From contig JBBRCZ010000005.1 of NCBI GenBank assembly GCA_038204425.1, forward strand, positions 131,624-195,623: a DNA stretch of 64,000 bases. Reading direction: 5' to 3'. Every line of letters starts with the position of its first letter. Positions within the stretch are counted from its first letter, which is position 1. Positions 9,001-12,000 of the stretch are shown here, one piece after another. The position numbers are program-made. Origin of the DNA: Spirochaetia bacterium (GTDB lineage: Bacteria; Spirochaetota; Spirochaetia; DSM-27196; Salinispiraceae).

Positions 9001-12000
9001 CGTCTTTTCCAATACGACCACCTAACATCACAGCCAAGTCTCCGGGCAAAACATGCTTAATCCAAGAGAACTCACCACCGATTTCTCGCGGCATAATGCC
9101 ACCTGTTCCGCAGTAAACTAGCGGTTTGCCAAGGTATGATTCATCAAAAATAAATCCGCCAGCCGCAGTTGGGATACCGCTTTGGTTGCCGCCATCGATG
9201 ATTCCTTCATGAACCCCATGCATTATCCTCCGTGGACTTAGCAATCCTTTGGGAACGTCTTGATCGGGTGTGGAAGGATCGGCAAAGCACAAAACATTAG
9301 TATTAAATATTGGTTTGGCACCTTTGCCAGTACCTAATATGTCACGATTAACGCCAACGATACCCGTTATTGCACCACCGTAGGGGTCGAGGGCAGAAGG
9401 AGAATTGTGCGTTTCTACCTTAAAACAAACCACGTGCTGATCGTCAAAATCCACAACTCCGGCATTATCATAAAACACTGAGCGCAGATCCGGTCTTTGA
9501 GCGCTTAGCTCTTGGGTGGTGTCTTTTATATACGTTTTGAATAGACTTTTTATGTTTTGAATTTTGCCGTTTTCAGACTCTCGATAATCTACTTCAGCAG
9601 CAAATATCTTGTGTTTGCAATGCTCGCTCCAAGACTGAGCTAGCATTTCGAGTTCTACATCACTGATCTTGCTAACTAATCCTGCATGCGCTCGGATCGC
9701 CTGAGTTTTTGGGTCACTAAAATGATTACGTATGACAATCATTTCCCCAAGCGTCAAAGCCAGCAAACGATCTTTACTCAAAGACAGCAGTTGATCGTTG
9801 TTCATCTGAGCGATATCAATAAAGAGGCTATCTTCAACATTACCCAAGGCAACACCCTTGTACAGGGCCGGAAAGAAATTTCCAGAAGCCATGTCTTGGT
9901 AGCTTCTAATCTCGCTTCGTTGGATTAGCGGATTGTGCAGAAGCTTTGCGATGTCCCTTAGCTGCTCGTCCCTCAAGTCTATGCGGCTATAAAAAACAAT
10001 TTGTTTGCCAGATTGAACAAAGGCAGGAGGGTGTCCTTCTTTTCCGTGTTCTAGCCATAATGCTTCACTGGCAGTTATCCCAACCGGGTCGGTAACACCT
10101 GCCTTAAAAGTAGTCTCGATGGCGAAATTCCAATCTTTTCCAAAAGCCAAAGCTGCAGCTTGGTCAATATACCAGTCCTGAACAATGGGGTCCGAAAATA
10201 TGGTCTTAATGCTTGCGGCTTTTGGTTCTAGTTGATCAGGAATACAATAGACATCAACGACTCTGATTCTTTCTATCAGCGGTCCAAACTGGGCGCTGAT
10301 GAGCTCTTGAACAGCTGCTTCTCGGCCATCACCTGTCTCAATTTTGTTGACAACTTCTATTCTCATATGGCACTCCCGGAGTTTTAATAATTTGGCCCAT
10401 TAAAGATTGGCAAAATCCAGAGTGGAAAAATGGTCCTCTAGTGTCTCGGCTCGACGAATCAATTTTACGTTGCCGTCCACCTTGATCAAAAGCTCTGCTG
10501 ACCGCAACTTTCCATTGTAGTTGAAGCCCATTGAATGACCATGAGCTCCGGTGTCATGTATGACTATCAAGTCCCCATCGTCAATTTTTGGCAAGGCTCT
10601 GTCAATCGCAAACTTGTCGTTGTTCTCGCAGAGACTACCGGTTACATCGTAGACATGGTCAGCAGCTTGGTCTTCTTTACCAAGAACAGTAAGGTGATGA
10701 TACGCGCCGTACATACCCGGTCGCATCAAATTGGCCATGCAGGAGTCAAGCCCAACGTACTGTTTGTATATGTCCTTGTGATGTATTGCTCTGCTCACCA
10801 AAAAGCCGTGTGGACCTGTAAGGTATCGCCCATTCTCACTCACCAAACCAAGGTGTTTGAGATTGGTGCTCGACAACAATTTTTGGTGTAAATTGTGGAT
10901 CTCTGACGCAACGTACTCAATATCAACTTCGTTTTGGTCCGGTCGATAAGGAATACCAATACCTCCGCCTAGATTAACAAACTCAACTACAATTCCAGTG
11001 CTCTTTTGAATCTCAAGTGCCAATTCAAAAAGCATTCTCGCTGTTTCTACAAAATAGTCGGCGTTTAGCTCATTTGAAGCCACCATGGTGTGCAAACCAA
11101 ATCGTTTAACACCCCAGCTCTGCGCCGTTCTATATGCTTCAATAATCTGTTGTCGAGTCAAACCGTACTTTGCTTCTTCTGGTTTGCCAATAAGTACATT
11201 GCCCTCTCTCAGCGGACCAGGATTGTATCTAAAGGCTAGCAAGTCGGGCAATCCAACTTGGTTCTTCAAATAGTCGAGATGGCTAATATCGTCTAGATTG
11301 ACTATAGCGCCTAAATCTAGCGCGCGTTTGTATTCTTCGGCTTTAGTATTGTTAGAAGTAAAGAAAATTCTCTCGCCTCGCACACCAACGCGATGACACA
11401 GTTCTAGCTCGGCAACACTGGAGCAGTCAAATCCAGACCCATTGTCTGCCAATAATTTTAGAATATGAGGATTGGGAAGAGCCTTTACTGCATAGTGATT
11501 TCTAAAGGCCTTCTTCCCTTTTGAAGCTTCTGCCACCCAAGCAAATGCGTCATGCAGACGCTTGTTGGTGTCCAGTATTCCTTTTCCGTCATATAGGTGA
11601 AAAGGCGTGGGATAGGTTTTAATAAGATCATCTATAAAAGATTTATCAAAAGGTAAGGTTTTGGTTTTACCGAGCTGCACATTGGTCTCCTAATCATTTA
11701 GAAAACGTGTGCGAAACAGCTCATTTAAAGATCAAAATTGCTTTTTTTCGCACACTTTGGGTACTATTCTTTAGATCCTCTGATGCTGATGCGAACTTGT
11801 TTATACAAACCTTCGCCTTCACTCTTGGTTTCTAATTCGCCCACGTCAGCCAAAGCTGTATGGATTAGGCGTCTTTCAAACGGGTTCATTGGCTCGAGCA
11901 GACGGGACTTCCTGGTTCTCATTACTTGATCGCCCAATTTCTGAGCCAAACGAACCAAGGCTTCTTCTCTTCTGCCTCGATAGTTTTCTGAATCAATTAT

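Follow-up and report, generated by a model that had tools for sequence, protein, structure and literature searches.

How does a spirochaete with no recognisable diaminopimelate (DAP) epimerase complete the synthesis of lysine? The question is raised by a lysA-like gene in the window, the 64,000-nucleotide stretch of Spirochaetia contig JBBRCZ010000005.1 analysed here (Table 1). Family searches of the source genome (G000, 95.6% complete) recovered the complete DapL-pathway set lysC, asd, dapA, dapB, dapL and lysA, with dapB-dapA and a dapL above cut-off on contig C1, asd on C13 and two lysC-like genes. The same searches gave no match to PF01678 (DapF), none to the meso-DAP dehydrogenase Ddh (TIGR01921) and no PhzF-, proline-racemase- or LarA-type protein; the racemase-like genes were one Alr, YggS and one MurI. 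The preliminary description of this DNA had listed dapA, dapB, dapL and a LysA, with neither DapF nor Ddh and no second alanine racemase of the DapF2 kind. All of this was borne out by the searches: with no PF01678 match and a single Alr, neither DapF nor DapF2 was recovered. We propose that the spirochaete probably makes lysine without the textbook epimerase step, through a remodelled last enzyme that acts on LL-DAP.

Table 1. Features of the divergent lysA gene and positions of active-site codons in the window.
Feature	Position	Strand	Description
lysA, divergent clade	10400..11680	-	426 aa, GTG start; fold-III PLP decarboxylase, candidate LL-diaminopimelate decarboxylase
RBS-like motif AGGAG	11687..11691	-	6 nt 5' of the GTG start; read off the sequence
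Lys66 (YAVKA)	11483..11485	-	PLP Schiff-base lysine position, aligned to 1TWI; 238/238 homologues
Met199 (HTMVASN for HxHxGSQ)	11084..11086	-	replaces the family-wide si-face His; Met in 238/238
Cys351 of CE motif (GSLCENND), then Glu352	10628..10630	-	by alignment
His380	10541..10543	-	replaces Tyr of the GAY motif; His in 238/238 homologues
Tyr388	10517..10519	-	aligned with Phe of L-specific ornithine/lysine decarboxylases (FNG); Tyr in 238/238

In profile searches the window LysA scores 276.5 bits on TIGR01048, below the curated cut-off of 297.9, and its clade relatives score 261.8-292.1 bits. Its best solved relative is the M. jannaschii LysA (E 1.6e-45), and the structure matches included no solved structure of the clade. 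The AlphaFold2 model (pLDDT 91.4) retrieved DAP decarboxylases as top Foldseek matches (27-31% identity, TM-score 0.80-0.87); the ESM Atlas match carries a generic name only. The window LysA has at least 8000 sequence matches with E no worse than 1e-60, and many of these bear the plain name diaminopimelate decarboxylase. The limits of the clade are easy to draw, as matches in the two phylum samples described below split into those with E <1e-150 and those with E >1e-64. Canonical LysA matches in the genome samples are ~26-37% identical to the window LysA. Two unannotated gut records in a phage collection carry clade LysA, and a 704-aa protein, P0240, joins DapD-type domains to a clade LysA.

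The gene lies between jag/yidC, at the end of the dnaA block, and purL-purQ, genes that do not form a secondary-metabolite cluster. The surrounding segment (window 5789-19230) has the gene order dnaA-dnaN-recF...rnpA-yidC-jag, a block of the origin type, and after it purL and purQ; in G009, G139 and G191 lysA is likewise 13-18 kb from the start of contig C1. Neither a lysine riboswitch nor any other Rfam match was found in window 9000-15500.

Canonical LysA (EC 4.1.1.20, TIGR01048; 1TWI, 2QGH, 1KNW), defined by its action on the D-centre of meso-DAP rather than on LL-DAP, and the clade share the fold-III barrel and beta domain, the PLP lysine, the CE motif, the distal RPxxY pocket, Tyr388 and a place in lysine clusters. 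Conserved in the window LysA are Lys66, Arg151, Glu282, Arg285, Arg320, Tyr324, Cys351 and Glu352. The two groups are, however, only ~30% identical, the clade scores below cut-off, and three canonical motifs are altered: the si-face His becomes Met199, EPGR becomes E[NCS]GR (E-N-G-R in the window LysA; Asn, Cys, Ser or Ala replaces the Pro at position 283 among 238 homologues) and GAY becomes GAH through His380. The clade also has a second invariant Cys, Cys86. Arg320 aligns with R343, described as the Arg that binds the distal DAP carboxylate (PMC7857480). Fold-III decarboxylases are reported to have a conserved si-face His, with which the carboxylate of a D-substrate forms a hydrogen bond (PMC12091041; the role of the His also PMC7857480), and an L-substrate must, according to the same account, present its carboxylate on the re-face (PMC12091041). 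Because the clade has lost this His, the D-carboxylate contact would be removed. The roles suggested here for Met199, His380 and Cys86 rest on alignment.

A different signal comes from Tyr388. We take this position to be that of F397 in ODC and Y430 in DOKDC, and Phe there to be the criterion of L-specificity. Tyr at the equivalent position is said, in work by Phillips and co-workers from 2019 and 2022, to mark D-specific enzymes, and it reportedly blocks L-substrates in DOKDC. By alignment, Phe occupies the position in ODC, LODC, SbnH, BtrK and the genome's own L-lysine/ornithine decarboxylase; the window LysA has Tyr. This last decarboxylase, of the FNG type, is the second fold-III enzyme of the genome (L182:2382-3557, contig C4).

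The gap extends across the order. Among 61 order genomes, DapL was found in 58, clade LysA in 56, and DapF and Ddh in one each; the 39 of high quality comprised 39 with DapL, 36 with a LysA match and none with DapF or Ddh. In G016 (85% complete), the sole genome with DapF, dapF immediately follows a canonical lysA (336.9 bits); clade LysA was not recovered from this genome. Ddh occurs together with dapL in G057 (70% complete). The order-wide absence claimed earlier therefore holds apart from G016 (dapF) and G057 (ddh), and the single Alr holds for the source genome but not throughout, as six of the 61 show two Alr matches. In two of these six the pair is probably a single gene that has been split, in three (G004, G006, G031) the extra match belongs to a peptide-salvage cluster, and the sixth is G057; at least one Alr is present in all 39 high-quality genomes. 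The salvage cluster (L230:3278-9649 in G004; L228, L229, L231) encodes an Alr-like racemase, M20, M55, S66 and M19 peptidases (families scanned for G004), and a canonical lysA beside a peptide ABC transporter, and likely recovers meso-DAP wall peptides for hosts that have clade LysA as well. A Sediminispirochaeta locus (L140) reads dapA-dapL-lysA, the arrangement that the preliminary description gave for one spirochaete locus.

The absence of DapF follows the type of LysA in two phyla. Our spirochaete sample held 201 genomes, all at least 90% complete, 170 of them with a LysA-like match. DapF was missing in 21/47 genomes with clade LysA (counting G299, whose DapF match is below cut-off) compared with 3/123 with another LysA-like gene. 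Of 201 archaeal genomes from the phylum of Methanosarcina spelaei, 197 had a LysA match, and DapF was present in 0/27 carriers of clade LysA versus 164/170 of the others. Kin within these phylum counts are not independent; the archaeal loss is probably a single family-level event, because the six of the 27 carriers that were placed in a tree besides M. spelaei group there with named Methanosarcinaceae. The DapL families that accompany the loss are TIGR03542 in spirochaetes and TIGR03540 in archaea. The converse cases (3/123 and 6/170), in which the LysA-like gene is from outside the clade and DapF gave no match, are G159, G123, G285 (L222-L224), G319, G345, G356, G443, G463 and G500; an assembly gap, salvage or another bypass may account for these nine.

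Beyond these samples, we tested 55 host genomes out of 80 homologue loci, mostly metagenome-assembled genomes for which completeness is not given. Of the first 50, 26 had DapF over cut-off, close to the 25 of 40 reported in the preliminary description; five further genomes had none. DapF was present in 13/14 Bacillota, 4/4 Deferribacterota and 2/2 Opitutaceae hosts of clade LysA, and was not found, among the 50, in Methanosarcinaceae (0/4), Chloroflexota (0/3), Pacearchaeota, Levyibacteriota, Brocadiia, Sumerlaeota or Chitinispirillaceae. Ddh exceeded its cut-off in 4/50, all four also with DapF. In a quick IQ-TREE analysis of 78 proteins, hosts without DapF are scattered over the tree, their state requiring 11 changes, at least four of them forced by strongly supported branches. 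DapF absence thus tracks clade LysA in two phyla and several other lineages. Two candidate replacements were rejected as a common solution: DapF-fold relatives (PhzF, proline racemase) occurred in 0/5 genomes and LarA in only 2/5.

One such case is the 1.0-Mb Levyibacteriota genome G066 (Patescibacteria), with dapL-lysA-lysC at the end of contig C10 (L221:9267-12076) and lysC-dapB-dapA-asd-lysS, where lysS encodes a class I lysyl-tRNA ligase, at the start of C2 (L220:1-5195). The two contigs share no exact overlap, and their adjacency is suggested by the split lysC. Searches of this genome found MurI and no DapF, Ddh or Alr. Comparable lysine clusters without an epimerase gene are L120, L124, L125 and L140. 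According to PMC3022021, L. lactis makes lysine although its dapF has not been identified, and S. thermophilus has the same gap; in both, dapF is the one gene missing. Our control genomes of L. lactis and M. acetivorans each contained dapA, no DapF and no LysA scoring as canonical. The L. lactis LysA is presumably a member of the clade.

Why, then, do many hosts of clade LysA keep dapF? The preliminary description had counted this co-occurrence as a possible refutation. The co-occurrence is real, and it is largely explained by a need for meso-DAP in the cell wall. The motif DNPR in MurE indicates the use of meso-DAP, though it is not the sole determinant (PMC3829189). We read the MurE motif in the source genome and in 30 hand-picked others: 14/20 other DapF-less clade genomes, 11/26 clade genomes with DapF and five canonical ones. 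DNPR was present in 1/15 DapF-less clade genomes (including the source genome) against 6/11 with DapF; put the other way, in this hand-picked set dapF is kept in 6/7 clade genomes with DNPR and 5/19 without. The source genome has EDPR. Spirochaete walls contain ornithine.

In three spirochaetes with clade LysA, the dapF that is left is damaged. Relics without catalytic motifs lie divergent from a helicase-like gene in G083 (L237:5326-6222) and G085 (L238:4657-5547), and G177 encodes, on the minus strand, a 1359-aa fusion of the carbamoyl-phosphate synthase large subunit (CarB) with DapF in which Ser replaces the first catalytic Cys (L183:3688-7770). Both Cys are kept in the dapF of G078, G089 and G110. 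The G083 relic is followed by an aminotransferase, DapL-like by eye; the corresponding site of the source genome holds lysC and a phosphorylase-like gene but lacks dapF.

Residues that separate DapF-positive from DapF-negative hosts amount to lineage differences away from the catalytic motifs. The same motifs occur in hosts with and without DapF; therefore the property belongs to the LysA clade as a whole and is not specific to the order.

We favour, with a probability of roughly 0.55, direct decarboxylation of an L-centre of LL-DAP by clade LysA, perhaps with meso-DAP accepted too. DapA, DapB and DapL, assigned by family match, would supply LL-DAP; clade LysA would bind it as a PLP aldimine and decarboxylate an L-centre, and L-lysine would result from either end of this symmetric molecule. 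In the alignment the distal pocket for a DAP-like substrate is kept (Arg320, Tyr324, Glu352), whereas the si-face His for the D-carboxylate is lost and His380, presumably with a role in the altered chemistry, is gained. Such an enzyme would make DapF dispensable: hosts with meso-DAP in the wall would keep dapF, and others would let it decay or lose it. In favour of direct decarboxylation, the loss of DapF follows the type of LysA, and the one order genome with dapF has it beside a canonical lysA and lacks clade LysA. Further, dapA and dapL exceed their cut-offs in the Methanosarcina-group genomes G470, G420 and G405, where searches found neither an Alr C-domain nor an Asp/Glu racemase; lysine clusters occur without an epimerase, DapF-less hosts are scattered on the tree, and dapF relics exist. 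The invariance of Met199 and His380 (238/238) and the proline-free E[CS]GR in common with L-specific SbnH and BtrK would fit the same reading, as would the missing dapF of L. lactis and S. thermophilus.

Several observations count against it. Tyr388 is kept in 238/238 homologues where the L-specific ODC, LODC, SbnH and BtrK have Phe, which by alignment would point to a D-centre. Loss of the si-face His is not needed for L-specificity, because L-specific ODC keeps it. Clade LysA co-occurs with dapF in 26/50 outside genomes and 26/47 spirochaetes, with no active-site difference between the host groups, and five clade genomes without DNPR MurE still carry a dapF match. DapF can also be missing where clade LysA is missing (3/123 and 6/170 genomes). 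According to PMC3927611, tabA failed to complement an E. coli lysA mutant. The earlier alternatives, an epimerase that escapes recognition or a LysA that takes LL-DAP, thus stand as follows: the gap is real and the LL-DAP option is the better supported, with Tyr388 pointing the other way.

The epimerase alternative holds that clade LysA is an ordinary meso-DAP decarboxylase and that a separate enzyme, unknown or promiscuous (Alr, MurI, an aminotransferase or a new fold), epimerises LL-DAP. The D-type Tyr388 fits it. Moreover, dapF-null E. coli grows, presumably through a side activity, and DapF2 illustrates that replacements exist (PMC13759103); because E. coli without dapF shows no growth defect, the epimerase step can leak. 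The earlier suggestion that Alr or MurI fills the step is compatible with the source genome, which has both, and with the presence of Alr in 39/39 high-quality order genomes, but not with G470, G420 and G405, which have no Alr and no Asp/Glu racemase. A LarA-family protein does occur in G470 and G405, which lack PhzF-type and proline-racemase proteins; it is absent from G000, G007 and G066. Across 151 loci, the neighbours of lysA and dapL included no recurring candidate, although our search covered candidate families and these loci rather than whole proteomes, which leaves room for an epimerase shared by the DapF-less hosts. Since a separate epimerase leaves unexplained both the loss that follows LysA type and the dapF next to the canonical lysA of G016, we regard it as improbable, if a serious contender.

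The epimerase might instead be LysA itself, epimerising LL-DAP to meso-DAP on the PLP of its alanine-racemase fold and then decarboxylating the D-centre. Such a bifunctional enzyme would reconcile the dapF losses with the retained Tyr388. Both DapF2 and OrnR are racemases of fold III, OrnR using a Cys (PMC13397332), and the clade offers the invariant Cys86. We nevertheless consider it quite unlikely: position 199 is Met, leaving no evident si-face base; a plain L-arginine decarboxylase, 2NVA, shares the DC motif of positions 85-86; and released meso-DAP would spare hosts with DNPR MurE their dapF, yet 6/7 keep it. Least credible to us is that DapL yields some meso-DAP directly, as general chemistry might permit given that DAP is handled as a PLP aldimine, or that the genes serve salvage of imported meso-DAP with de novo synthesis incomplete, as the peptide-salvage cluster of some order members might suggest. 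Against this, the loss of DapF is accompanied by DapL of two distinct families, the peptide-salvage genes include a canonical LysA of their own, and dapL is kept in 39/39 high-quality order genomes.

Direct decarboxylation of LL-DAP would have precedents on this fold and would differ from the known epimerase bypasses. The L-specific fold-III decarboxylases (ODC, LODC, SbnH, BtrK, FigC/FslC) show that an L-centre can be decarboxylated; SbnH acts on an L-centre (PMC7857480), as does BtrK according to its PDB title, and both have E[CS]GR in common with the clade. ODC, LODC, SbnH and BtrK differ from it in Phe at position 388, in lacking an RPxxY pocket and in much lower similarity. The DapF2 route (Alr2 of Staphylococcus) and the Ddh route also give lysine without DapF (PMC9026213, PMC13759103), but each uses a separate enzyme and has meso-DAP as an intermediate, and neither was found in the source genome or most of the order. 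The proposal of DapF2 came from PMC9026213, and complementation in PMC13759103 supported it. In the latter paper a Chitinovibrio LysA called 'diverged', in which Asn277 replaces an Arg, is treated as an ordinary LysA; judged by spacing, that protein is probably a clade member. Canonical LysA nearly always accompanies DapF, whereas clade LysA often does not.

The tabtoxin cluster of Pseudomonas syringae offers a further parallel: its TabA is LysA-like and is accompanied by DapD-like and aminotransferase genes, with no epimerase listed in the available text of PMC3927611. TabA, which we compare by description only, differs in belonging to secondary metabolism and in failing to complement E. coli lysA (PMC3927611). 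The preliminary description put the window LysA at 46% identity to TabA; no protein named TabA was among the window LysA matches. Plasmids of Agrobacterium and Yersinia frederiksenii do carry clade relatives, within secondary-metabolite clusters that are uncharacterised (L207:12013-13317, L208:10022-11263), with either an oxygenase gene or methyltransferase, ATP-grasp and aminotransferase genes as partners; two plasmid-cluster homologues are 47% identical to the window LysA and share Met199, His380 and Tyr388. The literature searched, with most subscription journals outside its scope, contained no paper proposing an LL-DAP decarboxylase and neither an activity measurement on a clade enzyme nor a structure of one with ligand.

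The pathway gap is real, extends widely and is tied to one uncharacterised LysA clade; a change of stereospecificity may plausibly be the reason for it. With slightly better than an even chance, in our estimate, the clade forms a large family of LL-diaminopimelate decarboxylases that has gone unrecognised and that defines an epimerase-free lysine route, in which the His-to-Met replacement and His380 would reverse the stereochemical course on the scaffold of a DAP decarboxylase. On balance we also lean towards a route that spans Spirochaetia, Methanosarcinaceae, some Chloroflexota and CPR/DPANN lineages and, probably, lactococci and streptococci. If so, it would close a gap already in print, that of Lactococcus and Streptococcus thermophilus, which make lysine but lack dapF (PMC3022021), and one enzyme would account for the equivalent gap in many spirochaetes and in archaea of the Methanosarcina group. 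A large set among the at least 8000 matches, many now named diaminopimelate decarboxylase, may then need another reading. The clade would in addition put to the test ideas about how fold-III decarboxylases choose between D and L, and would offer a shorter lysine route for strain engineering.
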